From an uncultured Gammaproteobacteria bacterium (GTDB taxonomy: Bacteria > Patescibacteriota > Microgenomatia > Woykebacterales > RBG-16-39-9b): a DNA stretch of 64,000 nt. The notes beneath the pieces were generated by a model, which saw nothing but the letters and a program-made list of their open reading frames with translations, did no database searches and had not been told where the DNA came from. Both the position numbers and the translations under genes were made by a program. Shown here in pieces: positions 1-40,730 of the stretch (its first letter is position 1; every line of letters begins with the position of its first letter). The stretch is from assembly GCA_964367355.1 (NCBI GenBank), contig CAYIWY010000002.1, forward strand, positions 71,296-135,295. Direction: 5' to 3'.

Positions 1-1090
1 GGGCTTCAGTTGTGAAATAGGAAGGTGAAGAAAGACCAGCATTTGGACAATCAGCGACGTTACAGGCCCAAACCGACCAGTAGTACGTTTTACCCTTATC
101 AAGGACGGTCGGCGGAACTGGAAAGGCGCCGGAAGTACCGTTCTGAGTTAACCAACCATCTATACTCCAATTAGAAATACAACCAGTGGAATTACAACTA
201 GTTGGTGAGATGCTTTTATACCAAAATCCATTGCTGGCGAAATTTGCAGAAGTGGAAACCCAGAGAGCATAACGACTGGCACCAGGAACCGCCGTCCAGG
301 CGAAAGGAGTACTAATGGTAGTGACTCCGGTTTGTCCGTAGGTTGGCACACTTAAAGTTGGTTTAGAAGTTACCCCAATAGTCCCGGAAAATGTTCCGGG
401 TCTAAAATCAAGCAGTTGTTTAATACCATTTACGTCAGTTACAAAAAGTCTTGTATCAAAATAGATTGAGTTTGGAAAGTCTTGGAATTGAGCCGTCAAG
501 GTACTGTTTGTAAAACGCAGATCTTGATGACTAATACAGTAAGTTTTTGGATCAGAAACACAAACCTCATTAATATTACCTTGCTTGTAAGCTAAGATAC
601 TAAATACTGGAGTATTCCAACTAACAGTCTTCAAACAATAGGCAGCAGTACTAAAACAAGCCCCAGTAAAGCTCCCTCTTTGGTAACCAATAAAATAAAC
701 CCCAAGATTATTGTCAGCTCGAACTAATACATCGACATAATAATCATAGCCACGCCCGGGAACCTGCAAAAGACTTCCTGTTTGTTTTGGTCCGATCGAA
801 GCGTTGCCAGAATCACCAAACCCATCTGTCTCACTTCTTTGACACTGCGTCGTACTACCTTTTGGTTGACCGGCATTACAAACTTGCACCAACCAATGTG
901 GTGTTGTATTAAATTGAACTGATGGGTCGGGGTAATTTGGGTCGCCAAAACTCGCCGCCCGAATACGAGAGTCACGAATCGCGTTGACAGACAAAACAGT
1001 GATCGGAACAGAAATAAAAACTAGAATTGTAAATACTAGTGAAGCTTTTGTATGAAAAGCAAGAGTTTTCCAAATGGACAGCAGATTCAT
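1..1090 (-). CDS. Large secreted repeat protein, paralog of the 1578..4427 gene (N-terminal ~363 aa; C-terminus runs off the window start)
   Basis: My reverse-strand translation from ATG at 1090 gives an open frame to position 1: MNLLSIWKTLAFHTKASLVFTILVFISVPITVLSVNAIRDSRIRAASFGDPNYPDP... This is collinear with the N-terminus of the 962-aa protein. The 5' ends share nucleotide similarity (...ggacagcag.ttcatgtgtagtt.aacta). Not in the ORF track because there is no stop in the window. Confidence 0.7.
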   Translation of the reverse strand, partial: MNLLSIWKTLAFHTKASLVFTILVFISVPITVLSVNAIRDSRIRAASFGDPNYPDPSVQFNTTPHWLVQVCNAGQPKGSTTQCQRSETDGFGDSGNASIGPKQTGSLLQVPGRGYDYYVDVLVRADNNLGVYFIGYQRGSFTGACFSTAAYCLKTVSWNTPVFSILAYKQGNINEVCVSDPKTYCISHQDLRFTNSTLTAQFQDFPNSIYFDTRLFVTDVNGIKQLLDFRPGTFSGTIGVTSKPTLSVPTYGQTGVTTISTPFAWTAVPGASRYALWVSTSANFASNGFWYKSISPTSCNSTGCISNWSIDGWLTQNGTSGAFPVPPTVLDKGKTYYWSVWACNVADCPNAGLSSPSYFTTEA

Positions 1091-1100
1091 ATGTAGTTAA

Positions 1101-1574
1101 CTATTTGCAAGTGCTGGTGGTTAAATCAGATTTTGTTACTTGCCGACTCAGATCGGCTGAAACTCCCCAAATAATAGCTAATTTACATAAATCTGTAGCA
1201 CCAAAAATATTCAGCTTTTGCTCTGCCAACAATTTATTTTCTCGATACTCTTTCAAAGAAGTCGCTTTTATGTTAGCTGTTAGATATTTAGTGGTCGCAT
1301 CATAATTAAGGACAAATTTGCTTTCTGTGTAAGGCAAACTGTTCTTTACCTTTTTAATTTCAGTATCGCGAACAACTGATTTAGTAATTGACTCTCCTGA
1401 TTTAATATCCGGCAAAATTGTTTGGGCTTTCGCCAACTCTTTAGTGATCTGGGGAAGGTTGCTTAAACTTGCTTCTAAATTTTTGTCAACACCGCTAACG
1501 ATCAGTAAGTTAATCCCGATTAAGGATAATCCAATAACTATAAAAGAAGCAGTTAATACTTTCTGGTTATTCAT
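1101..1574 (-). CDS. Hypothetical membrane-anchored protein (157 aa, N-terminal TM helix)
   Basis: Complete ORF with hydrophobic segment FIVIGLSLIGINLLIVSG. It sits between the two giant paralogs in the same orientation (4-nt overlap with the upstream gene, 11-nt gap to the downstream one). Confidence 0.5.
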   Translation of the reverse strand: MNNQKVLTASFIVIGLSLIGINLLIVSGVDKNLEASLSNLPQITKELAKAQTILPDIKSGESITKSVVRDTEIKKVKNSLPYTESKFVLNYDATTKYLTANIKATSLKEYRENKLLAEQKLNIFGATDLCKLAIIWGVSADLSRQVTKSDLTTSTCK

Positions 1575-1577
1575 AAT

Positions 1578-4427
1578 CTAACAACCACCATATTTGTTTA
1601 TATATACAGACCAACGACAAGCAAAACCATCATTAAATAACTTGACCGCAACTCTCACTTGGGCGTATGGATTCCACGCACCAGCATCGTATCCTGCTCC
1701 TAAAAATGCTTTTGCCCAAAAAGTGTTATCACCGAAACCGACATCATCTCCGCCGGGGGTTTTCCAACAACCCGCTGCTTTCTTAGAACCATCCGCAGCG
1801 ACAATACTTCCCGAATCAGCATAGTTTAAGGCCTCTTCCCCACCTTGCTGCCACAAATCCGGAGCGAACTGAAAGACACCAATTGTTGATTGAAAAGGGC
1901 TTCCATCAGACCGTGTATCAATATGATAAGCACAATCTTCCCCACCTCCACTTTCTCCCAAAATCACTGTCGTTAGTATGTCGGCTAAGTTATCGTTTGG
2001 ACGTCGTTTGTCTTTTGGAGTAACTGCAAGTGAGTCAATGTAACTTACAATATAATTTCTAACCTCAACTGAGTCCGAACTACCACCGCCACCACCAGCT
2101 GCACCTCCACCCCCAGTACTGCTTGCAGTCATATCAGGACAAGCAGAAGTTTTAAAACTAGCTATGTTGCTTGGATACCATTGACCTGCGATATTAGTAT
2201 TTATCCTCCAAAAATGGACTCGGTTTGGTAGTAACCCTGGCCAGGCGTAACTCTTGGCGCCGACTACTGGTGGTGGATCGGAACTAAGAAATGTATCAAC
2301 CAAGAAATTGTTATCGAACAATGAAAGGTCAATGTACTGGGAAATTACACTCGTAGCACTCGCTGGATCCCAGTTAAAAGTAACATTGATTCTGCCATTT
2401 ATACAAGCACTTAAGGCTGGCGTTACCTGAGTTATGATAGCAGCAGAGGTTCCGCCACCACCTCCGCCTCCACCGCCACCACCGCCAGCTTGTCCACCGG
2501 AACCGGTATCGGGAGGTTTAATCGTACGAGCATTCACGGTAAACTTACTAATATCTGAAACAAGAAAACTACTGAGCCCACGAGTTATACACCCATCACT
2601 TACTTTACAAGCGAAAACTACAAAGTACCAATCCCCGGCCGGCAAGGGTTTTGGCGGTGAGGTAATATTGGCCGGTTCAACATTATTATTATAATAAGTC
2701 CAACTACCACTTAAATCAGTACTACAAGGATTCTTTGAACAGGTAATCTTCGTCTTTGCCCAATAGTCACCCTTAAACTGTCCACCTAAGAAATCACCGT
2801 TTTTTCCCTTTAGAAAAATTGTGTAGTCAACAATTTTACTCTGACTTCCAGCCTGATCCCAGAAAAACTTTGCACTACCATCCACATAAGTTTGGGCGGA
2901 GAGGTTTGTTGGCCCTGTTTCAGTTACATCTCCTTTTGTTCGAAAACTGGAATTACTTGGAAGACTACAACTATCGGTGTTACAAGCCCGCACTGACCAG
3001 TGATAAACTTGTCCAGGTTTCAGAGTAGAACTTCTTGGAACAATATTTTTAAAAGTTGCCCAGTTAGCACTGTCACCCCAGTTTCGACTGCATTGACCGC
3101 TGCTACAATTAGAATCCGCAAGATAAGAAGCCCAATAACCAGATAGGTCGTTTAATTTATTATAACTGTCAGAAACGGCAACTACATAAGTAGTGGCGTT
3201 GGCTGCACTCTCCCAACGAAAAACTGGTGACAAGTCAACATCCGGTGTTGGGGTACCATTATTCGCTAAACTTGGTGCGCTTAAGATCGGTGAATTTGGA
3301 GTTATTATCGGAGCAACTGGTTTTGGTTGTGTGGGTGGTGGGGTTGGCGTCGGTGTACTCAAGCCTTCAGTTGTAAAGATACTTCTCGGTGCCAAACCAG
3401 GACAGGTGGTCGCCGTGCAAGCAAAAACAACCCAAAAATATTTCTTTCCCGCTTCAATATTTGGCGGTGGGTTTCCGAGATTACTGGCAGAACCAGCTTG
3501 TGTTGTCCAACCACCATCAATTAAACCTTTACTACAATTTGTACTACATTCTCCTGCTTGAACTTTCTTCCACCAAAAGCCACCCTTACCATAGTCGTCA
3601 CTGGTGGAAACCCAAACAGCATAGTAACTTGCGCCTGGAACAGTTGACCACTGCAAACGGAAATTATTGAAAACATTTTGGGCAATATTTGCGTTATTTG
3701 GAGGATATTTCAAAGTTGGAGCTGAAATTTGCTGTACAGATCCTGATTGATTATTTTGCAAAATATCCATTAAATTATTATTTATCGTAATCTCAACTTT
3801 GAAATTGATATCATTTGGGAAATCTTTGAACTGGGCCGAAGCATAGGGTGGCCCATTTTTACTTAATGGTGCTGTTATTACTGAAACACAACTTGTAGGC
3901 CCACCTTGGCAGGCATTGGAATTATTAGATTGGTTTTTTGCGGTAAATAATATTGTGGGCGTATTCCACCTAATTATTTTGTCGCAAAGCGCTCCAACTG
4001 CGCAGGTACCTTGGAAAGTTTGTCTGTCGTAAACTACCCATTTAAGTAAGGCTGGGTTACTAGAGTCTTTAACTAAAAGTTTTACATAGGAATCAAATCT
4101 TCGGTCAGTTCCACCTTGATACAGCTTGTACTGCGGTTGACTTGTTCCTTGTCCAAAACCGTCGGTATCGGCAATCTGACATTGAGTTTTATCGTCCATC
4201 GCTTTACCACTATTACAAAGTTGTACCTGCCAATGTGGTGTTAAGTTCCAATTCACTACTGGATCAGGATAATTTGGATCGCCAATGCTGGCAGCTTTAA
4301 TCCGGTTATCACGGATAAGACTGGTCGATAAAACAGTCACGGGGACAGAAAAAAGGACGAGAATAGTAAAAATTAAAGAAGCTTTTGTATGTAAGGCAAG
4401 ACCACCCCAAAAGGACAGCAGTTTCAT
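1578..4427 (-). CDS. Giant secreted surface protein with FN3-like repeats, poly-Gly/poly-Pro linkers and a C-terminal Rpf-like (transglycosylase-like) muralytic domain
   Basis: 962-aa ORF. Start moved to the internal Met (MKLLSFWGG...) by paralogy with the 1..1090 gene. N-terminal signal/TM (ASLIFTILVLFSVPVTVLS). Repeated W..VPGAS.Y.VWVS segments. G12 and PTPTPPPTQPKP linkers. C-terminal ...ILGESGGGEDCAYHIDTRSDGSPFQSTIGVFQFAPDLWQQGGEE...AWNPYAQVRV...C resembles the Rpf/transglycosylase-like fold (ESxG ... GGVQF-type motif). Confidence 0.75.
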   Translation of the reverse strand: MKLLSFWGGLALHTKASLIFTILVLFSVPVTVLSTSLIRDNRIKAASIGDPNYPDPVVNWNLTPHWQVQLCNSGKAMDDKTQCQIADTDGFGQGTSQPQYKLYQGGTDRRFDSYVKLLVKDSSNPALLKWVVYDRQTFQGTCAVGALCDKIIRWNTPTILFTAKNQSNNSNACQGGPTSCVSVITAPLSKNGPPYASAQFKDFPNDINFKVEITINNNLMDILQNNQSGSVQQISAPTLKYPPNNANIAQNVFNNFRLQWSTVPGASYYAVWVSTSDDYGKGGFWWKKVQAGECSTNCSKGLIDGGWTTQAGSASNLGNPPPNIEAGKKYFWVVFACTATTCPGLAPRSIFTTEGLSTPTPTPPPTQPKPVAPIITPNSPILSAPSLANNGTPTPDVDLSPVFRWESAANATTYVVAVSDSYNKLNDLSGYWASYLADSNCSSGQCSRNWGDSANWATFKNIVPRSSTLKPGQVYHWSVRACNTDSCSLPSNSSFRTKGDVTETGPTNLSAQTYVDGSAKFFWDQAGSQSKIVDYTIFLKGKNGDFLGGQFKGDYWAKTKITCSKNPCSTDLSGSWTYYNNNVEPANITSPPKPLPAGDWYFVVFACKVSDGCITRGLSSFLVSDISKFTVNARTIKPPDTGSGGQAGGGGGGGGGGGGTSAAIITQVTPALSACINGRINVTFNWDPASATSVISQYIDLSLFDNNFLVDTFLSSDPPPVVGAKSYAWPGLLPNRVHFWRINTNIAGQWYPSNIASFKTSACPDMTASSTGGGGAAGGGGGSSDSVEVRNYIVSYIDSLAVTPKDKRRPNDNLADILTTVILGESGGGEDCAYHIDTRSDGSPFQSTIGVFQFAPDLWQQGGEEALNYADSGSIVAADGSKKAAGCWKTPGGDDVGFGDNTFWAKAFLGAGYDAGAWNPYAQVRVAVKLFNDGFACRWSVYINKYGGC

Positions 4428-4538
4428 GTGTAGTTTAACTAATATAAGCGTACCAAATATACTCAAACCGTGTCAATAAGGTATAAGCACTCGACCAGGT
4501 CTCGCGCTTGTAACTTAAGCAAGTTATAATTTCTGATT

Positions 4539-5300
4539 ATGACAATAAAAGAAATATTAAAACAATCTAAAATTAAAGGAGTTGAAACAGAAATTTTACT
4601 TTCAGCTGTTCTGAAAAAAGATCGAAGTTTTATTAACGCTTTTCCGGAAACTATTTTATCTAAAGTCCAGGAAAATAGGGTTAATGATTTTATTGACCGC
4701 AGAACGAAAAACGAACCAATACCCTACATTCTTGGTTTTAAGGAATTTTATGGCCTGAAATTTCTGGTTAACCAAGACGTACTTATCCCCCGTCCGGAAA
4801 CAGAAAAATTAGTTGAACAAATTTTAAACCACACCTCTAAAGAACGACATCAAAATTTAACCGTTGCCGATGTCGGAACCGGAAGTGGGTGTATCGCCAT
4901 CACACTAGCAATAAAAAATCCAAAGCTACATATAATTGCAACCGATACCAGTTCGCAAGCACTAGCAGTTGCGATTAAAAATGCTAAATTACACCAGGTT
5001 GAAAATCGAATAAAATTTATAGAGAGCAATCTTTTGGAAAAAGTTAACGAAAAAATGGATGTTGTTGCTACAAACCTTCCCTACATCCCAACTTCGAACT
5101 GGGAAAGATTGCCAGCCGAAATTAAGTATTTCGAACCAAGATTAGCTTTAGATTCAGGAAAAAGCGCATATATCCTTTATCATTTACTTTTTGAAGAAGC
5201 AGCAAAAAAATTAAATCCAGGGGGAGTTATTTTTTATGAAATTGACGGATCGATCAATCAAGTTTCGGCGGTCGATCTAGCGGAAACTCTTCCGGAATAA
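4539..5300 (+). CDS. prmC: Release factor glutamine N5-methyltransferase PrmC/HemK
   Basis: IPYILGFKEFYGLKFLVNQDVLIPRPETE, SAM motif VADVGTGSGCIAI, substrate motif NLPY (NPPY variant). Confidence 0.9.
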   Translation: MTIKEILKQSKIKGVETEILLSAVLKKDRSFINAFPETILSKVQENRVNDFIDRRTKNEPIPYILGFKEFYGLKFLVNQDVLIPRPETEKLVEQILNHTSKERHQNLTVADVGTGSGCIAITLAIKNPKLHIIATDTSSQALAVAIKNAKLHQVENRIKFIESNLLEKVNEKMDVVATNLPYIPTSNWERLPAEIKYFEPRLALDSGKSAYILYHLLFEEAAKKLNPGGVIFYEIDGSINQVSAVDLAETLPE

Positions 5301-5952
5301 AGATATTTTCCTTTGGAGCTTTGCGTTTTTTGAGATAGTACCAAACTCCCCCACCGATTATTAACAATAATATTATGAAAAAGGGCCACAGCGGTAGAGA
5401 TTTTTTTGCTTTTTTAGCCTTTGCCAGCTGAACATTTTCGGCAGTAGCTACGACACTGTAACTGCCACTTTGTACCTCGGTCAGTGAATCAACAGTTGTT
5501 GTGTGAGTTGGAATATTTGAATCAATTGTTGAATCTTTCTGAAAAGAAAGCGTCACACTTGTTTGCCCTGAATCTAAAATTTCGAATTTGATCGTTGCAA
5601 TAACAATATCACCGATAATCTTAACTCCAGAAGTTGGCGCTAAAGCGGAAATTCTAATTTTTCCGTTATCTGACTTCTTCACGGGATAATTACTGAAAAA
5701 ACTGCCTTCTTTAATTTCTTTAACTTTTAGGAAATTGACATCGTAAGATGCTACAACATCAACCCCGTCAACAGTTTCTTCGTTTCCCTTAATTACTACA
5801 TCGATGCTTAAATCTTTACCTTCCCCAACATTACTAAACGGTGGGTTTAGCAGCATCGAGCTGGCAAAAGTAGGTGAAAATCTCCCCACTAAAATAGTTA
5901 AAATAAATAGACTGAAAAAGAAAAGAATTGTTTTTGGCAGAAATTTTATCAT
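5254..5952 (-). CDS. Cohesin domain protein with N-terminal signal peptide and C-terminal TM anchor
   Basis: IDVVIKGNEETVDGVDVVASYDVNFLKVKEIKEGSFF ... GKIRISALAPTSGVKIIGDIVIATIKFEILDSGQTSVTLSF matches the cohesin beta-sandwich signature (V.V.V....G..F.L.YD...L.....G / G.I.F.F....A.IKF...). C-terminal LPLWPFFIILLLIIGGGVWYYLKKRK anchor. Start overlaps the stop of the upstream dockerin gene (TGATG). Confidence 0.65.
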   Translation of the reverse strand: MIKFLPKTILFFFSLFILTILVGRFSPTFASSMLLNPPFSNVGEGKDLSIDVVIKGNEETVDGVDVVASYDVNFLKVKEIKEGSFFSNYPVKKSDNGKIRISALAPTSGVKIIGDIVIATIKFEILDSGQTSVTLSFQKDSTIDSNIPTHTTTVDSLTEVQSGSYSVVATAENVQLAKAKKAKKSLPLWPFFIILLLIIGGGVWYYLKKRKAPKENIFIPEEFPLDRPPKLD

Positions 5953-7556
5953 CAGCTACCCTTTTTACCTTGGTTTACTAATAATAACGAATAATCGACA
6001 CTATTCACAACCCCATCATAATTGATATCGTAAAGAATTTCTCCACTTTTGATCCCATTTGGAACCAAAAGATCAGTATCTTTACTATCAATTTGATTAT
6101 CATTGTTAAAATCCCCTGTTACAAAAGTGGCTATATTCAACGAAGTATTGTTGACATAAGTAAATCCAATTTTTTGTACTAAGGAATTTTTTGAAAAAGT
6201 TTTAAGTACATAAGCAGCATTCTTTTTAAGCAAACCACTGGCTTTTATAACTAAAGCCCCACCGTCTTTTCCAACTGAAGCATTTTGGTTCACGGAAGTT
6301 CCATCAATAATTAATGTTACATTCATTGAACCCTTCAAAAACGCATTGGGGACAAAAGTTAATTTAATATCGTCTGGTCCAGCAGTTGGTTGTTGGGCAG
6401 GATTGGTAGATGGTGGAACCACCTTTGGCGGAGATGGTGGCTTTGTTCCAGGAGGATTAGTACCACCACAGTTACTACCACAACCCGGTGGGCTGGAAAC
6501 ATTAACAACTACAGAATTTGATGCACTACCACATGTAATCGAATAGGTTTTTGGAGAAGTGAGAATTCCGGTGGAGACTCCGGAACTGTTTGACCCTCCA
6601 GTCGACCAATTGCCCGACGGCATACCTGATGAAGCACTACAACTACTGGCGTTGGCAATTGCCCAGGTTAATGTTGCTGCGCTGTTGTAACTGATTGAAA
6701 TCGGTCCATCGGAACCATTGGCTTTAATATTAACCGTCGGACTTGGTGGGGGTGGTGGAGGTGGCGGTGGCGGTGGCGCGTTTACAGTCACAGTCAGATT
6801 TACATCGTTATCCCCTTCGGTTGATTCAGCCACATTTGCATAGGCATCGGCCCGAAAGAGCATACTTTTCGAACCCGTCTGATCCCATCTAGTGGTAAAA
6901 GTATGGCTAATGCTCCCACCTACCCCAAGACTGCCCACAGAAAAGTCTTGCTTCGGATTTGAAGTACCAGTTCCATAATTTTCAACAACCGTGCCGGAAG
7001 CTCCGGCAGTCCCTGTACCGATATTTGCTGTTCGAAAAGTATAGCTAACCGTTTGTCCTTGCGTCACTGAAGTGGGACCGGTAACTGCTCTATTGGTTCC
7101 GACTCCATTTTGAATAATTAGGTTTGGAAATGTGACCGAGGGCGGTGTACAAGATAAACTAGCAATACTGTTAGTGGTTCGAATCCCGTCAACATAGCCA
7201 AAACGGTTGAGCCAACCGTAGTATGTCTTGTTTGCAAAAGTGGGTACATAGGTTACTAATTGGGAAGTTGAACCTATGTGATAAGTCCAGACAACGTCTG
7301 CCTTGGCAAGATCAGTTGTAACGTGAATCCAAGTATCTAAACCATCAGAGGTAAAATTATATTTAATTCCCCACTTACTATCGCTCTGGCAAACAACTGA
7401 AGATGATAAAGCCAATGTAGCTGCTTTTGATCGTTCATCACGGGTTGTTCTAGTTGCCAACTGAGTAACAACGATGGAACCAAAAAGCAGTAAGGTTAGA
7501 CAAAGAGAAAACCAAGTTTTAGTGGAAAGTTTTATTTTTTTGGACAACAGGAGCAT
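5952..7556 (-). CDS. Secreted surface protein with poly-Pro linkers and C-terminal type-I dockerin (paralog 1)
   Basis: N-terminal signal/TM. P12-SP and PPGTKPPSPPKVVPP linkers. C-terminus GDFNNDNQIDSKDTDLL ... YDINYDGVVNSVDYSLLL is two canonical dockerin Ca-binding repeats (D.N.D...N..D). The ORF-track start is a GTG at 7559; ATG at 7556 is preferred. Confidence 0.75.
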   Translation of the reverse strand: MLLLSKKIKLSTKTWFSLCLTLLLFGSIVVTQLATRTTRDERSKAATLALSSSVVCQSDSKWGIKYNFTSDGLDTWIHVTTDLAKADVVWTYHIGSTSQLVTYVPTFANKTYYGWLNRFGYVDGIRTTNSIASLSCTPPSVTFPNLIIQNGVGTNRAVTGPTSVTQGQTVSYTFRTANIGTGTAGASGTVVENYGTGTSNPKQDFSVGSLGVGGSISHTFTTRWDQTGSKSMLFRADAYANVAESTEGDNDVNLTVTVNAPPPPPPPPPPPSPTVNIKANGSDGPISISYNSAATLTWAIANASSCSASSGMPSGNWSTGGSNSSGVSTGILTSPKTYSITCGSASNSVVVNVSSPPGCGSNCGGTNPPGTKPPSPPKVVPPSTNPAQQPTAGPDDIKLTFVPNAFLKGSMNVTLIIDGTSVNQNASVGKDGGALVIKASGLLKKNAAYVLKTFSKNSLVQKIGFTYVNNTSLNIATFVTGDFNNDNQIDSKDTDLLVPNGIKSGEILYDINYDGVVNSVDYSLLLVNQGKKGS

Positions 7557-7564
7557 CACTATCT

Positions 7565-7630: not shown

Positions 7631-9055
7631 TTAGCCTTTTTTACCTTGGTTTACTAACAATAGCGAATAATCGACACTATTCACAACCCCATCATAATTG
7701 ATGTCGTAAAGAGTGTCACCACTCTTAATTCCGACTGGGGTAAACAGAGTTAAATCATTCGCATCAATCGAGTTATCACTATTGAAATCTCCGGTAACAA
7801 AAGCGGCCACACTTACAGCTGTATTATCAACATACTTAAACCCAACTTTTTGGACAAGTGAGTTTCTGGAAGAAGCTTTCAGTGAATAGTTAGTATTTTT
7901 TGCTAGTAGGCTACTGGTTTTAAAGACAGAGATTCCGCCGTCTTTTCCAATCGAAGCGTTTTGCGCCAAACCAGTTCCTTCGATCAATAGTGAGAGCGTC
8001 ATCTGGCCCTGCAAGAAACTATTTGGGGCAAAGTTTAATTTAAGATCATTTATACTTGCAGCCGGCTGCTGTCCTGAGCCTGGCGGCACAACTTTTGCAG
8101 GTGGTTTTTTTGATACCGGTGGATTTGATGCAGGCGGCTGGTTTACTGGGGGTGCCGCTCCAACATTAACAACAACTTGTTTTGATAAAGAACCACCCGC
8201 ACCGGAACAACTTAAATCATAAGTTTTCTGACTAGTTAAATTACCCGTCGGTTCAGAACCTCCGGTACTATTTTTTGCATTAGACCAGCCATTGGAGGCT
8301 GTACAGGATGTGGCATTTGCTGCTGTCCATCTAAGGGTAGTTGCAGTATTGTAAGATAAATTTATGCTATCTGCCCAGAAATTAAGGGTTGGTGGTGAGG
8401 GGTCGGGAACAGTATAATTTACCACCAATCTGGAACCACGATTAACTTGATTGTACTCTTCGGGAGAACCGGGAGGCAAGAATCCAGGATTGGTCTCCTC
8501 TCGATCACTGAGAAGAACATATCTAGTCGAGCCGGTTTTATTTATGGTACTAGCGCTGATTTGAATAGTAAATTCCTGGCTATTGGATGGTAGACTAACG
8601 GTAGAAAAAAGTCCTGCAATCGATCCCGAATGAGGGTCGCCTCCCCAATCCCCACAATCTAAACTGGTCCCCCAATCGGCGCTGCGAATTCGATAGGTAA
8701 AGTCAGTCTGAGTGCTATCGGTATTTTCAGTCAATATTAAACTTGCGCTAGTAACAGTCGCTCCAGCAGGCAAAGTAGTATTAAAACTAACATAGCTTCG
8801 CCAGGCAGTGCTTTCCTGCTGACCAGTAGGCAAAGTTGCAGCAGACCCAACACTACAGCTTCCTAAAAAATTTTGCAGAAAACCTTCGGAAGCGGCTGTT
8901 ACGGTAATTGATCCATTGGCAGCCTGGCTACGATTGTCCCTAATATTTTGAGTTGCAAACTGAGTTAGCACAATTGCGCCAAACAAAAAACCAGTTAAAA
9001 ATAGTGAAAACCAAGTTTTTGGGGATAATTTCAACTTATATGAAAGGGGAGGCAT
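7631..9055 (-). CDS. Secreted surface protein with C-terminal type-I dockerin (paralog 2)
   Basis: C-terminus GDFNSDNSIDANDLTLF ... YDINYDGVVNSVDYSLLLVNQGKKG is near-identical to paralog 1 at the nucleotide level. Shared middle ~70-aa Cys-containing domain. Start set to ATG (MPPLSYKLKLSPKTWFSL) by alignment with paralog 1; the ORF track uses an upstream TTG at 9073. Confidence 0.75.
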   Translation of the reverse strand: MPPLSYKLKLSPKTWFSLFLTGFLFGAIVLTQFATQNIRDNRSQAANGSITVTAASEGFLQNFLGSCSVGSAATLPTGQQESTAWRSYVSFNTTLPAGATVTSASLILTENTDSTQTDFTYRIRSADWGTSLDCGDWGGDPHSGSIAGLFSTVSLPSNSQEFTIQISASTINKTGSTRYVLLSDREETNPGFLPPGSPEEYNQVNRGSRLVVNYTVPDPSPPTLNFWADSINLSYNTATTLRWTAANATSCTASNGWSNAKNSTGGSEPTGNLTSQKTYDLSCSGAGGSLSKQVVVNVGAAPPVNQPPASNPPVSKKPPAKVVPPGSGQQPAASINDLKLNFAPNSFLQGQMTLSLLIEGTGLAQNASIGKDGGISVFKTSSLLAKNTNYSLKASSRNSLVQKVGFKYVDNTAVSVAAFVTGDFNSDNSIDANDLTLFTPVGIKSGDTLYDINYDGVVNSVDYSLLLVNQGKKG

Positions 9056-9063
9056 TAGTTTAT

Positions 9064-9092
9064 ATGCTATCAAGCCTCAAAATGAAAGTCAA
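9064..9092 (-). promoter_or_regulatory. Promoter-like element TTGACT-N17-TAGCAT immediately upstream of the dockerin paralog-2 start
   Basis: Reverse strand reads TTGACTTTCATTTTGAGGCTTGATAGCAT then ataaacta ATG. Conserved with 7565..7593. Confidence 0.4.
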
Positions 9093-10413: not shown

Positions 10414-10761
10414 TCAACAATCCTGCACTTTTAGTTCTCCAAAACTTTTCTTAAAAAACCATTGGTTGCCTAACATTACCAAACACAAACGTTTTGCCTC
10501 GTAATCCAAAGACTCGGTTAAAGTCAATAATTTAACCTTTGTCCCTTGGAAAACTTCCAGCGAGAAAACTCTCTCCCCGTCTCTTTCTAAGCTTAAAATC
10601 GCCGTTACACTTCTTAAATAACGCTCCGCTGACATTCGATAAGAGTACGGTCCGGTTGCTTCTTGCCTTGTAATTTCGACAACCAATCCAACGCTCGCTG
10701 CCCGGCAGAGAGTTTTGACTATCTCGCCAACACAAGTCTTCCCGAATTGCATCTCTTCCAT
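10414..10761 (-). CDS. Hypothetical protein (GC-richer, ~115 aa)
   Basis: ORF in the track. Start chosen at MEEMQFGK because it has a strong SD (AAGGAGGTGgagaATG). Intrinsic terminator overlaps the stop (agtgcag...ctgcact + U-run). Confidence 0.4.
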   Translation of the reverse strand: MEEMQFGKTCVGEIVKTLCRAASVGLVVEITRQEATGPYSYRMSAERYLRSVTAILSLERDGERVFSLEVFQGTKVKLLTLTESLDYEAKRLCLVMLGNQWFFKKSFGELKVQDC

Positions 10762-10787
10762 TCTCCACCTCCTTTCCTTTTTAGGCA

Positions 10788-10811
10788 CAAAAAAACCCCG
10801 ATTACTCGGGG
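10788..10811 (-). terminator. Rho-independent terminator downstream of the purC-like gene
   Basis: Reverse strand reads CCCCGAGTAATCGGGG followed by TTTTTTT. Confidence 0.6.
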
Positions 10812-10950
10812 CTACTGCGCAGAACTTTTCAGATTGGTCTTTTGTTTAGCCATTCTGAGATTTAATTATACACTAGTGAAAACAATGTTTGTCAACAAAA
10901 GAAAACGCCGTCTGATAACCAAATTTGGTTAAACAAACGACGTTAACTTA

Positions 10951-11820
10951 TCACCACTGACTTACTAATTCAGCAGCAAGAAGATAATTTGCTCTAATCT
11001 CCTCCATTGCTTCCGGAGTTACAACTTTCAAATCCCGGAAAGGCTGTTTGCTAAGAATCTTTCCGTTCCAGGTAACTCTCCAACTGTCACAATCAATGAC
11101 ATCAGCGACGACAAGGATACTATAGCTGTTGAAGCCAAACTCGAGCTTGATGTCCCAAAGCAACCCGCCAACTTTTGCCCAAGCTTTTTCCAAAACTTCA
11201 AAAACTCTCCGCCCTACTTCCGCTATTTCCACAAGATTTATTGCGACCAAGTGATCGAGTGTCCCAGGCGGACTTAGGTGAAAATCTGATTCCAGAATCG
11301 ATGATTCTTGGCCAGACAACGGTTTGGTCGGATCCCAGAACAACCATTGTCCAGTGGTAAGATCATACGTCAGATAAGGATCGTGTCGAGAGTCGTCTTT
11401 GAGAAAAAACTCAACCACTATTGGATCTAGACGTGTTCCTTCCGCAACACTCGGATTCCGTTTCAGATAAGATCCAGAAGCCAAACGGCGCATGACCACT
11501 TCAATCGCAATCATATCGCAGTGTTCGACGATCATCTGATTTGGCTGCAACCAATCTCCAATCAAATGTGTCATAATTCCTGCTTCTTCCAAAAGATCAA
11601 AACACTTGATTGTCGTTTGGCAACTGGCGATACCTTTACCAGACATAATTTCGTGGCGAGCACCGTCTACAGCCGTAATATCGTCCTTATGCTCCATCAG
11701 GAGCGTGCCGTTTCCGAATTGGAAATTCCGCTTGGTTTTGCCCTCAGAAAACAAGGGCCCTTTCTCTCCAAACTGTTTAACGGCTGGTCGTTTCACCAAC
11801 GTGTCTCCTCCCTTGTTCAT
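10951..11820 (-). CDS. purC: SAICAR synthetase (PurC) family protein
   Basis: EGKTKRNF ... MEHKDDITAVDG ... GKGIASCQ ... LLEEAGIMTH ... IAIEVVMRRLASGSYLKR ... DIKLEFG is collinear with PurC motifs. GC-richer than surroundings. Confidence 0.7.
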   Translation of the reverse strand: MNKGGDTLVKRPAVKQFGEKGPLFSEGKTKRNFQFGNGTLLMEHKDDITAVDGARHEIMSGKGIASCQTTIKCFDLLEEAGIMTHLIGDWLQPNQMIVEHCDMIAIEVVMRRLASGSYLKRNPSVAEGTRLDPIVVEFFLKDDSRHDPYLTYDLTTGQWLFWDPTKPLSGQESSILESDFHLSPPGTLDHLVAINLVEIAEVGRRVFEVLEKAWAKVGGLLWDIKLEFGFNSYSILVVADVIDCDSWRVTWNGKILSKQPFRDLKVVTPEAMEEIRANYLLAAELVSQW

Positions 11821-12341
11821 TATCTTTCGATTTTGATCACTGCAGCTAATGACCGTAACGATTCGTCGAGTTCTTCGAGACTACGACAAATCCTTTCCCC
11901 ACTGCTTTCTTCAATAAAATATTCAACCTGCAAGTTGACCGTAGAACCTAGGTTGTCAGCCGCGAGACGGAAATCGGTACGCAAACCAATGATAGTTTTC
12001 CCTAGACCGAAAGCAAAACCAATCTCACTGGCTGTACCGGAATCAACGTCTGATCCATCTAAAACAGCGACCAAAACATCAGACTGACAAATCAAATCCG
12101 CATTTTTTCGACCAATTACCTGGTTGACCTGTTCATGCAGATAGATTCTGCGCTCCTCCATTTTTTCGAGCTTTTCCGCTTCTCTGAAGAGATCTCCGTA
12201 ATCCTGATCCCAAGGATCTAAAACCTCAAACCCATGTTTTTCGAGTAACTCATGAATCTTTTTCAGGAATTCGCGGGTACTATCAGCAAACCCCAAGGGT
12301 GAAGCAATGTAAGCTTTCACTTTTCCTCCTTTAAAAAACAA
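11820..12341 (-). CDS. Nucleoside 2-deoxyribosyltransferase-like protein
   Basis: KAYIASPLGF ... VLDGSDVDSGTASEIGFAFGLGKTIIGL matches the NDT/Rcl-like fold signature. 1-nt overlap with the purC-like gene. Confidence 0.6.
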   Translation of the reverse strand: MFFKGGKVKAYIASPLGFADSTREFLKKIHELLEKHGFEVLDPWDQDYGDLFREAEKLEKMEERRIYLHEQVNQVIGRKNADLICQSDVLVAVLDGSDVDSGTASEIGFAFGLGKTIIGLRTDFRLAADNLGSTVNLQVEYFIEESSGERICRSLEELDESLRSLAAVIKIER

Positions 12342-12421
12342 AATGAAACCACAGAGGCAGTTTCAATTACAAAAAGTTTAACACTGGAAAGTTTGATTAA
12401 CAACTCTAGAGAAATTTGAAC

Positions 12422-13639
12422 CTACATGCTATCGAGAACTTCACGGGCTTTGGTCAGTTGCGGATCAACGCTGTCTTTAATGTTTTGGTCAGTTATATCG
12501 ACTTTGTAATCAGGTGTAATTCCTTTTTTGTGAACCCAGGTCCCATTTGGAGTCAACCATTTGGCCACCGTAATATGCAGCCCAGAACCATCTGCCAAAT
12601 CATCGACTGTCTGAACCGTACCTTTGCCAAAACTAGTTTCACCGACAATAGTGCCCTTTTTGTGGTCGGATAGTGCACCGCTTACAATCTCTGAAGCAGA
12701 CGCGCTACCTTTATTAATTAAGACAACGACTTTTAGATCCTGCAAACGTCCGTCAACAGTGTTATACATCGGCTGACGTTTACCATTGGCATCTTCCTGC
12801 TGCACAATTATATCTTTGGTGGTGAGAAAATCACCGGCAACATGAATAGCACTCTGGAGTAAACCACCTGGATTATTGCGCAAATCTAAAACTATTTTCC
12901 TGATTCCCTTGGTCGTGATTTCATTTATCGCCTTATCCCATTCATCGTTAGAATTTTCCCCAAACTGATTTAGATTGATAATAGCTGTATCTTTTTCTAT
13001 TGTTAATTTGATGGTTTTGACAATAATCGTACCTCGAATAATTTCAAATTTGCGTACCACTGTTTCGGTTCCACGTAAGATTTCAAGTTTAACTTTTGTT
13101 CCCGCTTTTCCTCTGATCATTTTAACTGCGTCCACAATTGTAATAGTGGTTGCATCTGTATCATCAATTACAACAATACGATCAGCTGCTCTGATTCCTG
13201 CTTTTTCCGCCGGAGAATCTTCGATCGGAGCAATAACTACAAGATTATTGTCTTTTGACCCAAGTTCCATACCAACCCCTTCAAACGATCCGGAGATTTG
13301 ATCGTTGAATGAGACATTGGCATCAGGATCAAAATAAGCTGTGTACGGATCCCCAGCAGCAGTAACCAAACCTTTGATCGCCCCCTGCAACAATTTTTGG
13401 CCGGAAAGATCTTTTTTAAATAAGAAATCTTTATTCAACTTATCCCAAACTTGCCAAAACGAGGAGAAATCAACACTATCCTTTTTGTAAATTTTATTGG
13501 TAACACTAATTTTTTCCTGGTTATTTGGTAAAAAGGGTACGTCGACATAGCGCCCAAACCAAAACCCAAACAATAAAAAGAAAACCGTTACAATAAATTT
13601 TGGGAAGATATTATTGATATTTTTTTGATTGTTGTCCAT
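12422..13639 (-). CDS. ctpA: C-terminal processing (tail-specific) peptidase, S41 family, with PDZ domain
   Basis: N-terminal TM. PDZ (GSFEGVGMEL...IEDSPAEKAGI). S41 motifs (LDLRNNPGGLL, GSASASEIV, TSFGKGTVQ). Confidence 0.85.
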   Translation of the reverse strand: MDNNQKNINNIFPKFIVTVFFLLFGFWFGRYVDVPFLPNNQEKISVTNKIYKKDSVDFSSFWQVWDKLNKDFLFKKDLSGQKLLQGAIKGLVTAAGDPYTAYFDPDANVSFNDQISGSFEGVGMELGSKDNNLVVIAPIEDSPAEKAGIRAADRIVVIDDTDATTITIVDAVKMIRGKAGTKVKLEILRGTETVVRKFEIIRGTIIVKTIKLTIEKDTAIINLNQFGENSNDEWDKAINEITTKGIRKIVLDLRNNPGGLLQSAIHVAGDFLTTKDIIVQQEDANGKRQPMYNTVDGRLQDLKVVVLINKGSASASEIVSGALSDHKKGTIVGETSFGKGTVQTVDDLADGSGLHITVAKWLTPNGTWVHKKGITPDYKVDITDQNIKDSVDPQLTKAREVLDSM

Positions 13640-14697
13640 TAAGAAATTATTTCCAAATTCGCAGCTGGAACGGAAATCTTCCGCCCACTGGAAAATTTTA
13701 TCTCCGCTAAAATCGAAGAGAGACCAGACTCTAATTCTACATCCTCTGAACTAATTGATTCAACTACCCCAACTAATTCCGAAGTGTCGCCGTGGAAATG
13801 TCGAACAACATCACCAACTTTGAGCTCTCGCCAAGTCTCACGATCCAATGGTTTATTATCGACGATTTTTTTGTCCTGCGGAACTAAAACTGTTCTTTCC
13901 GAACCGTTGATAAAAGCAAATTTGTCATTTTCCTTGTTAAAAGCTTCATAGACATCTTTGCCCATGGTAACTGTTCCAAATCCTTCGGTGACAATTATCG
14001 TAATCCCAACATCACTTTCGACTCCCAAACTCATAAAATCACGATAATCAATCCCGCCAACTACAATTCCCTTAACTCCAAGCGTAAGAGCTTTTTCAAT
14101 CGAGGCACGATCCAAATGTGATCCCCCGACCAAAATCCTCCCCTGGCAAGATGAATCAATCTTCTGCGGAATAATAAACTCGTTTTGTCCGGCGATTATT
14201 TTAATTATCCCTTCCCGTGGTTTTCCTAAACCGGCTGATCCGATAATCTCGCTTCCAAAAGTCCGAACGATGACAGCGTCTTCCCTGACATCTTCAATCA
14301 ATCCTGAGGCTCCAGCAACTAGCCTGACTGGCATCGGCAAAAACTTCACGACAATATCCCCAGATTCATCGATGCTAGTTATGACTCCATCCGCTGGACT
14401 TTTGAGTTCTTTTTTACCAACTCCAAAGACTCCTTTTTTCCTGGCAATAATCTCACCTTGATAGATACGATCCCCAATGCTGCGAAGTAAATATTTTTTA
14501 ATATCACGTCGTGGTACACCAAGTGTGTGAGCAATTTTTACTAAACGCTGCCCAGCAGAAACCTCACAATGCGCCACAACACTAGCAGCATCAACCCGAT
14601 CTCCTTCTTTCACTGAAGGTTTACAATGACCAATGTAGGAACGAACCAGATCAAACTCACTATTTATAATTACTCTTCTCCAAACAGGACAAATCAT
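13639..14697 (-). CDS. Hypothetical protein (352 aa) co-transcribed with ctp
   Basis: Complete ORF with 4-nt overlap on both neighbours. No family recognised; it has a weak lipoyl/biotinyl-like N-terminal stretch KEGDRVDAASVVAHCEVSAGQ. Confidence 0.5.
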   Translation of the reverse strand: MICPVWRRVIINSEFDLVRSYIGHCKPSVKEGDRVDAASVVAHCEVSAGQRLVKIAHTLGVPRRDIKKYLLRSIGDRIYQGEIIARKKGVFGVGKKELKSPADGVITSIDESGDIVVKFLPMPVRLVAGASGLIEDVREDAVIVRTFGSEIIGSAGLGKPREGIIKIIAGQNEFIIPQKIDSSCQGRILVGGSHLDRASIEKALTLGVKGIVVGGIDYRDFMSLGVESDVGITIIVTEGFGTVTMGKDVYEAFNKENDKFAFINGSERTVLVPQDKKIVDNKPLDRETWRELKVGDVVRHFHGDTSELVGVVESISSEDVELESGLSSILAEIKFSSGRKISVPAANLEIIS

Positions 14698-37888: not shown

Positions 37889-39685
37889 TTATTCAATCTC
37901 CTTCCAGGAATTGATATTGAACCCTCCCCCAGGTCCGGACGAGAAATTTGTATTAGCCAGACCCGATTCGTAGGTCACGGTCGCATTATTTTCCAATTCA
38001 ATTCCGTAACCAGTTATTTCCTTAGCGCCACCATTATTAGCAACATCAACCTGACCACGGGAGCCGTAGATAACAGCCGCACCCACGTTGTTACCGACAT
38101 TAATTGCTGAATTACTACTAGTACAAGTTTGTCCGGTCGGACTATTAGTACCGTTGCAATCGTTTGTCGAAATCAATAAAAAGTAGCTCCCGGCTTGTCC
38201 CGAACCTTGAAAAGTAGTGTTGTTGGAAAGATTTATATAACCATCAGATAGCATAACCCCACCGTTAGCTCCATAACCAGCATCAAGTTTCACTATTACA
38301 TTATTTGATAAAGTAATAGTTCCTTGCACCCAAACTGTTCCTGTAATAGTCAGGGTTACGTTGTTATCCAAAACCATATTACCAGTAATCTTTGTCGGTC
38401 CTAAGGAAGCTGTTGCTCCATTGTTTAGCGTGTAATTTCCACTAACCACTCCTCCTGCTTCTGCCTCTGTTTTCCACTGGTTGATATTGGCATCAGAGAT
38501 AGCAAAATTTTGTGGCGTCGGGTCGGCTTGAGAAGTATTGCAAGCTTTATTATTACCACTCCCAGTTTGGCAATAATTTGTCCCCGCTATTGTCGAGTTG
38601 TTTACTGTATGAGCTCGAGCATCCCCAGTGGAACCTGTTCCGATAAGAACACTATTAATCGTCCCAGTTATCCCCCCTAAATAAAGTTTAAAATAGCCAT
38701 CTAAACTAGTAATATTCCAAGGTCCAGCGGAGTACGGGCCAGTTTTGGCTTGACCATTTGCATAAGTATTGTTTGCCGCCCATTGATAATACCGAGTCGC
38801 ATTGGTTGCCCCATCCAAAACCAACCAGTAAGTAACCCCAGCTATCAGTTGTGGGTTGGAAGTAAAGTTCACGCTCACCCAGCCGTAGCTTGAAGTAACT
38901 GAGGAAGCACTTAAAGATCCGGAGGTCACTGTAGTTGAGCTTGGGTTTCCGCCTGAATCGGTGGTGATTCTAACTGTCAGGTTTCCGGGCGTACTAACTT
39001 TGCGAATATAAAGCTGGACATTATTAGCCAGGTTAGTTGTGGCAACCTGAAAACTTTGGGCCGCATCTTGAGTAGAGCTCGCATTTCCAAAAGCTATCAA
39101 ATTTGTTGGTGTGGAAGGGGTATCATTAATTTGATCTGGGGTCGAGGCGGGACTATTAGCGGCAATAGCCGTTCCCGTGACAAAGGCTCCATTGGAACCA
39201 GTAATACTCCCGTTGGAGTAGACATTACCGTTAACACCGGAATTATTAGCCATCTCCAAACCACCAAAACCGACCTGAACACCGTAATTAAAGGCAACAT
39301 TCGTCGTGGACTGAGTCGTTCCTAGGCCAACTTCCAACTTTCGGTAATTACTACTTATATTTCCGTTGGAAGTAACGACCAAAGCTGTCAACGGACCACT
39401 AACGTCAACCTGAGTACTACCAGTGCCAACGTTCAATGTGTAAGAAGTTGAATAGTTTTTTGCATTGGCGATCCGATAAACCGCATCTTCAATTCCAGAC
39501 TCGGATGTATAGTAACTCTGAGCTGAGTCGACGACATTGCCGATAGTTTTCAGATCGTTGTAAGTCAAAACACCAACACTTGAAATCACAACAAGCATCA
39601 CCGTCACAACTACCAAAATCATTACTAGTGCCGACTGACCTGCTTGGTTTTTGATTTTACCTTTTAATAAATCTAAAGTTTTCAT
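37889..39685 (-). CDS. Large pilus-associated protein with PilX-N-like N-terminus and beta-helix-like G/N/T/S-rich body
   Basis: N-terminus QAGQSALVMILVVVTVMLVV (PilX_N-type). 598 aa, low-complexity repeats typical of tip adhesins. Confidence 0.5.
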   Translation of the reverse strand: MKTLDLLKGKIKNQAGQSALVMILVVVTVMLVVISSVGVLTYNDLKTIGNVVDSAQSYYTSESGIEDAVYRIANAKNYSTSYTLNVGTGSTQVDVSGPLTALVVTSNGNISSNYRKLEVGLGTTQSTTNVAFNYGVQVGFGGLEMANNSGVNGNVYSNGSITGSNGAFVTGTAIAANSPASTPDQINDTPSTPTNLIAFGNASSTQDAAQSFQVATTNLANNVQLYIRKVSTPGNLTVRITTDSGGNPSSTTVTSGSLSASSVTSSYGWVSVNFTSNPQLIAGVTYWLVLDGATNATRYYQWAANNTYANGQAKTGPYSAGPWNITSLDGYFKLYLGGITGTINSVLIGTGSTGDARAHTVNNSTIAGTNYCQTGSGNNKACNTSQADPTPQNFAISDANINQWKTEAEAGGVVSGNYTLNNGATASLGPTKITGNMVLDNNVTLTITGTVWVQGTITLSNNVIVKLDAGYGANGGVMLSDGYINLSNNTTFQGSGQAGSYFLLISTNDCNGTNSPTGQTCTSSNSAINVGNNVGAAVIYGSRGQVDVANNGGAKEITGYGIELENNATVTYESGLANTNFSSGPGGGFNINSWKEIE

Positions 39686-39712
39686 ATTAGTTAAGCAAAA
39701 TTACTTCGTAAT

Positions 39713-40243
39713 TTAGTAAGTCCTCAAAACTGCCGTCGAAGTAAGTGTTACGGCATTTTTTGGTCCGGTGATCGGATCTTTATACTCGACCGTTATCGAA
39801 ATCCGTATTGCATCTGCTCCACCAGTATTATTATTTATAAAAGTCAAGTTGGTGACTTTAACTTTTTCCGAGGTAAGTAGTTGGTCAGACTGGCCCTCAC
39901 GTTTAAGATAAAGATTTCCCTCGTCAACATAAAAATCAACAAAGGTCAGGTCTTCGTCATCAGGCAAATCCCGAACTGATGCCAAACTAAGTTGACCTGG
40001 ATTGGTCCCGAAAACACTTGTCGGGGTATAAATACTATCAGCATGCCGGATTTCCTGGGAAATTGTTTCTAGAGAGCGTCTGGCATTATCCAGCGATTCT
40101 CTGGTTCTTCTGGTTGTCTCGTTCACGCCTAGTAGTTGATTGACGAAAAGTAAAACTACAAGACTTATTACCGCAAGCAGAATTGCATAGATCAGTACCT
40201 CAATTAGTGTGAATCCTTTTTGCTCTAATTTATTAGATTTCAT
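39713..40243 (-). CDS. Prepilin-type minor pilin / pseudopilin
   Basis: KGFTLIEVLIYAILLAVISLVVL N-terminal methylation motif (G|FTLIE). Confidence 0.7.
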   Translation of the reverse strand: MKSNKLEQKGFTLIEVLIYAILLAVISLVVLLFVNQLLGVNETTRRTRESLDNARRSLETISQEIRHADSIYTPTSVFGTNPGQLSLASVRDLPDDEDLTFVDFYVDEGNLYLKREGQSDQLLTSEKVKVTNLTFINNNTGGADAIRISITVEYKDPITGPKNAVTLTSTAVLRTY

Positions 40244-40244
40244 T

Positions 40245-40730
40245 TTAATTATTTTTAATATTTGCAATATAGCTAGTTAGTTTTACTGATTTTAATCCCG
40301 AGTCTGTCCAACTAACTGTTGCAACAACTTTTTTGGTATTGGGATCATTTGTACCACCGCTAGATAGAATATTAAAACTGCCGTCACGACCAATATTTGA
40401 AAAAACTATAGTTGGAGTGTAGTAGCTGGAAGAATTGGAATTCGTCGTCGTCAAGGACCAGGTAGTACCAGTGAGTTTCGGATAATAAGTTGTTCCAGCG
40501 GTCAAACCTGCAATATTAGTCGTCCAATTGTCATCTTTTAGTTTTCTGACAACTTCCATCGCTTCTTCCCCTACCGCAACTGCTTCGGTATTTCTCTGGG
40601 CTTTCAAAGTCGCGCTGCGAGAAAAAAGAATAAAGCTAAGAAAGGCAGTAAAAGAAATAACAATGATTGTTGCAGTAATTACTATCTCGATTAAACCAAA
40701 TCCGTTTTGAGTTTTGTGTTTGTTTCTCAT
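40245..40730 (-). CDS. Prepilin-type minor pilin (PilV-like)
   Basis: NGFGLIEIVITATIIVISF N-terminal motif. Confidence 0.7.
   Translation of the reverse strand: MRNKHKTQNGFGLIEIVITATIIVISFTAFLSFILFSRSATLKAQRNTEAVAVGEEAMEVVRKLKDDNWTTNIAGLTAGTTYYPKLTGTTWSLTTTNSNSSSYYTPTIVFSNIGRDGSFNILSSGGTNDPNTKKVVATVSWTDSGLKSVKLTSYIANIKNN

Follow-up and report, generated by a model that had tools for sequence, protein, structure and literature searches.

What are the two large exported proteins encoded at the start of this stretch of DNA, and on whose cell wall might they act? The stretch analysed (64,000 nt of contig CAYIWY010000002.1, hereafter the window, whose coordinates are used unless another contig is named) carries genes A and B, both coded on the minus strand within positions 1-4427. 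We consider it rather probable that A and B are exported enzymes of a lysozyme-like family that had not been modelled before, with a cognate partner protein. Repeat-stalked surface wall hydrolases and lysozyme-like enzymes paired with inhibitors are already known. What is new here is the family of C-terminal domains ("heads"), its invariable partner, the association with type IV secretion system (T4SS) genes in other classes, and a duplicated derivative on a stalk of fibronectin type III (FN3) modules.

Gene A is complete (1578..4427, minus strand, stop codon 1578-1580) and encodes a stalked lysozyme-like protein with export signals. Its open reading frame (ORF) runs from 1578 to 4466, which gives 962 aa with the TTG at 4466 as start and 949 aa with the ATG at 4427. 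The 949-aa version is the gene call of public assemblies, and an identical copy is found in three of them; the ENA contig Hain_H52_01um_R1_11 (214 kb, ERZ1292616) contains the window, and its 949-aa protein is identical to A. The window holds the first 363 of the 1335 aa of gene B (1..1090, minus strand), the remainder lying past the window start. On the source contig (L091), full gene B spans 10485-14492, and its product has 7 modules and a C-terminal domain of the same type as that of A. A preliminary description of this DNA had proposed two giant tandem paralogs with a common leader and W..VPGAS.Y modules. The paralogy was borne out, with 42% identity between A and B over 371 aa (E 1e-82), leader and first W..VPGAS.Y.(L/V)WVS module included. 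Around each start, ~16 nt 5' of the ATG are also common to both genes (TAGTTAA(A)CTACAyATGAAwCTGCTG). The genes lie close together but are not adjacent, since a 157-aa gene (1574..1101, minus strand) stands between them, and "giant" was a generous word for large proteins of 949 aa and 1335 aa. Divergence between the two was uneven, the heads being 27% identical compared to 42% for the N-terminal 345 residues. The closest head is that of family member P0002 for A (56%) and that of P0016 for B (62%), so two head subtypes coexist. Orthologs of protein A showed 32-37% identity by BLASTP and 36-39% in the multiple alignment.

The head of A (aa 783-949; 1581..2081, minus strand) contains the motifs and residues ESGGG, C832, IGVFQF, W859, DSGS, CW.PG.D, D914, AWNPYAQ, W939 and C949. 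The C-terminal motifs quoted in the preliminary description were present exactly; the head of B reads …SNEDG…GEIGVFQF…AWNPYSQ…C. Conservation was counted over 27 aligned sequences, which make up the head family set. The candidate catalytic Glu, E825 (codon 1953..1955, minus strand), proposed as such from the start, was retained in 26 of the 27 members and is followed by Ser in 21. Residues C832, G850 (within I-G-V-F-Q-[FY]), W859 and W939 were present in all 27, as were the W, P and Q of W918-[ND]-P-[YF]-x-Q923; C887-W and D914 were each found in 26, and D871-S-G in 24-26 depending on the position. Four head Cys (832, 887, 937 and 949) are nearly invariant and likely form disulfides. The AlphaFold model of aa 783-949, built from the 27-sequence alignment (pLDDT 87.7, pTM 0.85), predicts an alpha+beta fold in which a helical lobe and a beta-hairpin flank a substrate cleft, as in the lysozyme-like superfamily. 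In the model, helix 32-43 ends with E825, and the beta-hairpin that follows bears G-V-F-Q-F. Glu35 of hen lysozyme likewise closes a helix ahead of a hairpin.

Curated models did not reach this family. Scans of head, partner and complete proteins against Pfam and NCBIfam gave no match, and the thresholds of PF06737 and PF01464, the models against which a check had been suggested, were not reached by the window protein. When the 27 heads were scanned individually against Pfam, sub-threshold matches to SLT (PF01464) appeared in 5 (best E 9.4e-5) and to PF06737 in 2 (best E 0.06). For P0025 the SLT score was 18.3 bits, short of the cut-off of 21.3, and both this match and that of P0017 start shortly before the Glu-bearing helix and extend over the next region. 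The family profile had no match among PDB sequences. Foldseek with the head model, another suggested check, gave no significant result. The scores listed for the head were 8.0 for c-type lysozyme (Bombyx), 7.9 for Bdellovibrio DslA, 7.5 for phiKZ gp144, 7.3 for Slt, 7.1 for MltF, 6.9 for EtgA, 6.7 for alpha-lactalbumin, 6.6 for phi6 P5, 6.5 for MltC, 6.4 for RpfB and 6.2 for RpfC; c-type lysozyme and SLT/GH23 enzymes thus outscored the Rpf proteins. With a non-significant Foldseek result and no PDB profile match, we regard the fold assignment as solid but distant, and place the head at that strength in the lysozyme-like superfamily as a family of its own without a curated model. The lysozyme-like fold of the domain and the retention of its Glu in the family, on which the preliminary description depended, both stood. 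Its further label of an Rpf-like domain fits the Glu and the core motifs, for which Rpf is a reasonable analogy, but the head does not belong to PF06737: that model is not reached, the domain is twice as large as Rpf, and c-type lysozyme and SLT/GH23 score higher.

When 1.84 billion cluster representatives were searched exhaustively with HMMER, only 26 proteins passed E<=1e-3, of which one (P0026, a repetitive false positive) was spurious and was dropped. A word-indexed search of 5.8 billion proteins gave one head relative and two full-length orthologs. The scan of GTDB genomes with the full-length alignment found no relative. The scan of viral contigs with the head, by narrow patterns, also found none and thus gives no hint that the head derives from a phage endolysin. 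The family is so far restricted to Patescibacteria-like contigs.

The gene between A and B (1101..1574, minus strand) encodes a 157-aa protein whose N-terminal transmembrane helix is followed by an outside domain of ~90 aa, in which two Cys are conserved. A homolog of this partner lies directly downstream of the enzyme gene in all 11 cases examined, within 3-10 nt. Scored with a profile built from the window clade only, the 11 partners gave E 1e-46 to 3e-5. Partner homologs directly follow orthologs P0002 and P0003, and downstream of gene B come its own partner, of 165 aa, and then a lipoprotein paralog of the partner. The same pairing was seen in every distant member with a readable contig (P0009, P0005, P0013, P0023, P0011, P0025 and P0028), where the N-terminal parts of the enzymes are unrelated, yet the partner homolog is present (E 1e-18 to 3e-5 with the window-clade profile). 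In hhalign, the window partner and the neighbour of P0009 matched at 98.3% probability. Each FN3-type locus terminates in a third partner copy with a lipoprotein signal, and partner-type genes therefore outnumber enzyme genes. These terminal lipoproteins (L091 15180-15605, L001 12423-12824, L005 11221-11709) have the lipobox L-x-[AG]-C, and their C-terminal half is homologous to the partner that is anchored by a transmembrane helix. Conserved adjacency of an enzyme gene and a gene for a small envelope protein is the arrangement of a cognate inhibitor or immunity pair. By analogy with such pairs, the most likely role of the partner is to bind its own enzyme and either hold it in check or guide it, whether as a cognate inhibitor, an immunity protein or a docking factor. 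The more diverged heads (27%, compared to 42% for the N-terminal regions), each with its own partner, fit cognate pairs that co-diversify.

Five of the seven distant members (P0009, P0005, P0013, P0011 and P0025) adjoin T4SS genes, namely VirB4/TraG-like ATPase, TraC-like and PrgI genes and arrays of VirB2-like pilins. A sixth adjoins dnaN and dnaA, the usual patescibacterial T4SS neighbourhood (PMC12102498). Recognisable VirB1 homologues are mostly not found beside virB4 in Patescibacteria, and other glycosidases may substitute for them (PMC12102498). Among the 46 window ORFs scanned there was no T4SS family, and the window genes do not stand beside T4SS genes. Two further features of the distant loci were observed. 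A small gene of PF05635, the four-helix-bundle family named "23S rRNA intervening sequence protein", lies upstream of three distant members, directly so at L089 1546-1926 and L090 5630-6004, and ~400 nt upstream on the opposite strand at L086 4284-4595; it is not found at the window locus. The VirB4/TraG-like ATPase beside P0009 (L086 1-1494) bears an intein (Intein_splicing + LAGLIDADG_3).

The remainder of protein A consists of a leader, an N-domain and a stalk. The leader (aa 1-48; 4284..4427, minus strand) has a basic start, a hydrophobic helix of ~23 aa and the motif IRDNRIKAAS, and could serve as a Sec signal or as a signal-anchor. The same leader is kept in the paralog and in orthologs P0002, P0003, P0004, P0016 and P0020, and its hydrophobic helix and RDxR[SI][KR]A are conserved across all orthologs. 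A slightly wider motif, RDxR[SI][KQR]A, recurs in the leaders of four exported proteins whose genes all lie on the minus strand of the first 9 kb: A (4284-4427), B (946-1090), a CARDB protein (7416-7559) and a dockerin protein (8930-9073). In each, a basic stretch and then one hydrophobic helix precede the motif, which lies ~40-45 residues from the start, and the CARDB and dockerin proteins have Q or K at its sixth position. By a rough estimate, about 0.1 chance matches to the motif would be expected in the six-frame translation. The shared motif may be a clade-specific sorting or processing signal.

The N-domain (aa 49-232; 3732..4283, minus strand) is all-beta in the AlphaFold model, with ~12 strands and six conserved Cys that were invariant in two alignments. 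The pLDDT of the model was mostly 70-92 by block and fell to 57-62 at model residues 41-60. A Pfam scan of the domain gave no match, and its relatives could not be separated from FN3 matches. Its six Cys and the four of the head point to an extracytoplasmic location.

Four FN3-like modules follow on the minus strand: module 1, with a Cys-bridged insertion (aa 233-356; 3360..3731), module 2 (aa 377-500; 2928..3299; jackhmmer domain E 1e-30), module 3 (aa 503-631; 2535..2921; E 7e-24) and a divergent module 4 directly before the head (aa ~665-765; 2133..2435). A jackhmmer search from module 1 found three strong modules and this fourth one (~661-765), weakly (E 9e-4); module 4 aligns with its counterpart region in P0002, P0003 and P0004. 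The longer orthologs P0002, P0016 and P0020 gave six modules plus weak extras by jackhmmer, and the module-profile search of paralog B gave six strong modules and a weak seventh. A profile of 25 modules matches PDB FN3 chains, titin and a Clostridium Fn3-like protein among them, and module 2 is one of those covered by this match. The modules conform to the seven-stranded beta-sandwich of the FN3 fold. The gathering score of the Pfam model fn3 (PF00041) was missed by protein A (E 0.23, 12 bits), and 2 of the 25 modules match the model below threshold (best E 0.0011). Since FN3 chains are matched by the module profile and Pfam fn3 stays below threshold, the FN3 repeats named in the preliminary description hold at the level of fold, not at that of the Pfam family.

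The linkers, again on the minus strand, are a Pro/Thr-rich one (aa 357-378, STPTPTPPPTQPKPVAPIITPN; 3294..3359), a Gly12 tract (aa 648-659; 2451..2486) and a second Gly-rich linker of the form G4AAG5 (aa 772-782, GGGGAAGGGGG; 2082..2114). The perfect Gly- and Pro-codon runs reported earlier did not survive inspection of the DNA. The Gly12 tract is written in mixed GGC/GGT/GGA codons (73-85% matches in Tandem Repeats Finder), the second tract is also mixed (74% matches), and the supposed Pro-codon runs are the same Gly tracts read on the non-coding plus strand, where the ORF 2434-2694 reads PPPPPP. The genuine Pro-rich linker is that at 3294-3359. The mixed codons and the identity of the tracts in three independent assemblies speak against slippage, and we do not take the Gly tracts for contingency repeats; they are missing from orthologs. 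A phmmer search of whole protein A against PDB returned single-chain antibody fragment (scFv) chains only, matched through the Gly linker, and was set aside as an artefact.

Put together, these features suggest how the system might work. Each protein consists, from N to C terminus, of a single-helix leader, a disulfide-rich all-beta domain, a stalk of FN3 modules (4 in A, 7 in B) joined by Pro- or Gly-rich linkers, and, at the far C-terminal end, a head of ~165 aa. We infer that the substrate of the head is peptidoglycan, whose glycan strands it would cut in the manner of either a muramidase or a lytic transglycosylase. If the leader remained membrane-bound, the stalk would hold the head tens of nanometres out, where it would act on wall beyond the cell's own membrane. 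That target could be the cell's own thick wall or the wall of a host to which such bacteria attach. The small partner, tethered on the outer face of the membrane, would bind the enzyme and restrain or direct it. The enzyme-partner pair would be an old module, which in most other Patescibacteria sits beside T4SS pilin and ATPase genes and probably opens the wall for the secretion machine. In the lineage of the window, this module may have gained the N-domain and the FN3 stalk, moved next to prmC/prfA and duplicated.

A number of results count against exported wall-cutting enzymes with a cognate partner as we picture them. None of the wall-binding domains LysM, SH3b and PG_binding was detected in the enzyme proteins, and the leader is compatible both with cleavage as a Sec signal and with retention as an anchor. 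Alignment of the family by hhalign with hen lysozyme and the RpfB catalytic domain was not significant and served for motif register only. In that register, the position equivalent to lysozyme Asp52 is Glu in 16 of the 27 members and Thr in A and its closest relatives. The partner had no Pfam, PDB or PHROG match, its word-indexed search gave six relatives, none of them named, and an inhibitor role would be assigned to it purely by analogy. Finally, the locus lies amid housekeeping genes, and its synteny is kept in relatives (among the core genes ctpA, htrA, prmC, prfA and rpmE), which suits an autolysin as well as a host-directed tool.

Whose wall is cut is the first point on which alternatives have to be weighed. 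Attack on the wall of a partner or host cell is plausible because the organism is a patescibacterium, and a role in breaching host envelopes has been suggested for surface lytic transglycosylases of Patescibacteria (PMC11665869). A fuller version, in which the head breaches the host wall from a 20-35 nm FN3 stalk, the partner is a new class of lysozyme inhibitor giving self-immunity, and the pair is the "missing VirB1" of the patescibacterial T4SS/pilus system, is something we advance tentatively. It is likewise possible, if rather doubtful, that A and B are housekeeping autolysins, which would remodel the wall of their own cell as it grows, divides or inserts surface machines (type IV pili, for example), with the stalk spanning the cell's own envelope and the partner stopping self-lysis. 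The synteny among core genes argues for this, as do the distant members beside secretion-machine genes, where local opening of the wall is expected; a host-recognition domain was not identified. However, 5-8 beta-sandwich domains with flexible linkers are long for the cell's own wall, module number and head type vary among close relatives, and the gene is duplicated with strongly diverged heads. We believe such variation and duplication to be more typical of a changing external target.

A second point is whether the head is an enzyme at all. That it is a non-catalytic, glycan- or wall-binding pseudo-lysozyme, related to enzymes as alpha-lactalbumin is to lysozyme, and that the proteins are adhesins, appears very unlikely to us. 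The Thr at the second acidic position of protein A and the lack of a match to any curated enzyme model would agree with it. The Glu, however, is kept in 26 of 27 members, and ES-GG, G-V-F-Q, DSGS and AWNPY.Q are nearly invariant at 27-40% identity, which is the pattern of an active site. A single Glu, moreover, suffices for lytic transglycosylases (GH23). The Thr makes the chemistry uncertain; judged from these residues, A may act in the manner of a lytic transglycosylase with a single Glu, and B in that of a muramidase with two carboxylates. Least of all do we expect the head to cleave some other beta-1,4-linked glycan (chitin, chitosan or exopolysaccharide) in place of peptidoglycan, given that the T4SS link of the distant members points to wall opening.

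Elsewhere the window encodes the usual bacterial housekeeping functions as well as a type IV pilus cluster. The CysS encoded in it is 52-54% identical to those of metagenome-assembled genomes of Patescibacteria, Minisyncoccia, Uhrbacteria (the best GTDB matches), so the organism is a patescibacterium without a close GTDB species representative. It comes from groundwater and is ultrasmall and probably host-attached. The gene neighbours of the locus are prmC, a cohesin protein, a CARDB protein, a dockerin protein and prfA. The three surface proteins adjoining it on the minus strand, the cohesin (5254-5952), the CARDB protein with a Pro-rich linker (5952-7559) and the protein with a dockerin-like C-terminus (7631-9073), are syntenic in relatives, and suggest a cohesin-dockerin surface assembly in a patescibacterium. 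In the type IV pilus-like cluster (36547-41677, minus strand), a PilN domain protein and a pilin that has an N-terminal methylation motif are accompanied by several ORFs without a Pfam match, one of 598 aa. The product of 48607-49488 (minus strand) is homologous to acyltransferases of lipid A biosynthesis (PF03279, E 1e-9), which is unexpected if there is no outer membrane. For a 905-aa ORF at 57110-59827 (plus strand), Pfam gave nothing at E<=1e-5. The minus strand carries most of the ORFs that reach 150 aa, and negative GC skew prevails nearly throughout the window. In the 64 kb there were no tRNA genes and no Rfam matches at gathering score.

How Patescibacteria open host envelopes and how their unusual T4SS cross the wall are open questions (PMC11665869, PMC12102498). 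The present locus brings to them a lysozyme-like family, with candidate catalytic residues, that is invisible to Pfam and NCBIfam, and an unreported small partner, found in 11 of 11 cases, that is a candidate inhibitor or immunity factor. The enzyme-partner pair may be the wall-opener that surveys with profile hidden Markov models missed next to virB4 in most classes. Were the proteins ordinary autolysins, annotation would still be gained for several hundred residues of "hypothetical protein".

Among known systems, the Rpf proteins (PF06737; RpfB, RpfC) share with the head a Glu in an E-S/A-G-G context, G-x-x-Q-F...T-W, and a conserved C-terminal Trp and Cys; like A and B, they are secreted and fused to other extracellular domains. 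The Rpf domain is compact (~80 aa), starts with C-E-(S/A)-G-G and has a disulfide to its C-terminal Cys. The head, in contrast, has ~165 aa, no Cys directly before the Glu, and additional invariant DSGS, CW.PG.D and AWNPY.Q motifs; it occurs in Patescibacteria, not in Actinobacteria or Firmicutes, and PF06737 has no match to the window protein at E<=1. The SLT/GH23 enzymes (PF01464; Slt70, MltE/F, phiKZ gp144, DslA) resemble it in the ES at a helix end and in G-(L/V)-x-Q, which the heads carry as G-V/I-F/L-Q, as well as through the sub-threshold PF01464 matches. All members nevertheless fall below the Pfam gathering score and Foldseek was non-significant; the heads have four nearly invariant Cys, and AWNPY.Q may take the place of AYNxG, in a register that comes from a non-significant alignment.

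The VirB1-type hydrolases (PrgK, TraG of pIP501, SEML1_0006) are also multi-domain proteins with a lysozyme-like domain, and the distant members of our family stand beside the same kinds of genes (VirB4/TraG-like ATPase, PrgI, VirB2-like arrays), whereas the window genes do not. We know of no obligatory small partner of VirB1-type hydrolases. SEML1_0006 of Ca. Southlakia epibionticum has Pfam-detectable PF18013 and PF01832 and a cysteine peptidase domain; the window family is invisible to Pfam and lacks a peptidase domain, and we therefore regard SEML1_0006 as belonging to a different family. Finally, the hydrolase/inhibitor pairs (Brucella SagA/PhiA, Xanthomonas X-Tfe/X-Tfi, Tse3/Tsi3 of type VI secretion, and the lipoprotein lysozyme inhibitors MliC/PliC) differ in that no sequence or fold relation was found between the partner and any known inhibitor, and the window enzymes carry a Sec-type leader in place of the delivery signal of T4SS or type VI secretion system effectors. 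These pairs nonetheless have the same layout, an enzyme encoded directly upstream of a small envelope-tethered protein, and the extra partner-like lipoprotein copies of the window locus extend the likeness.

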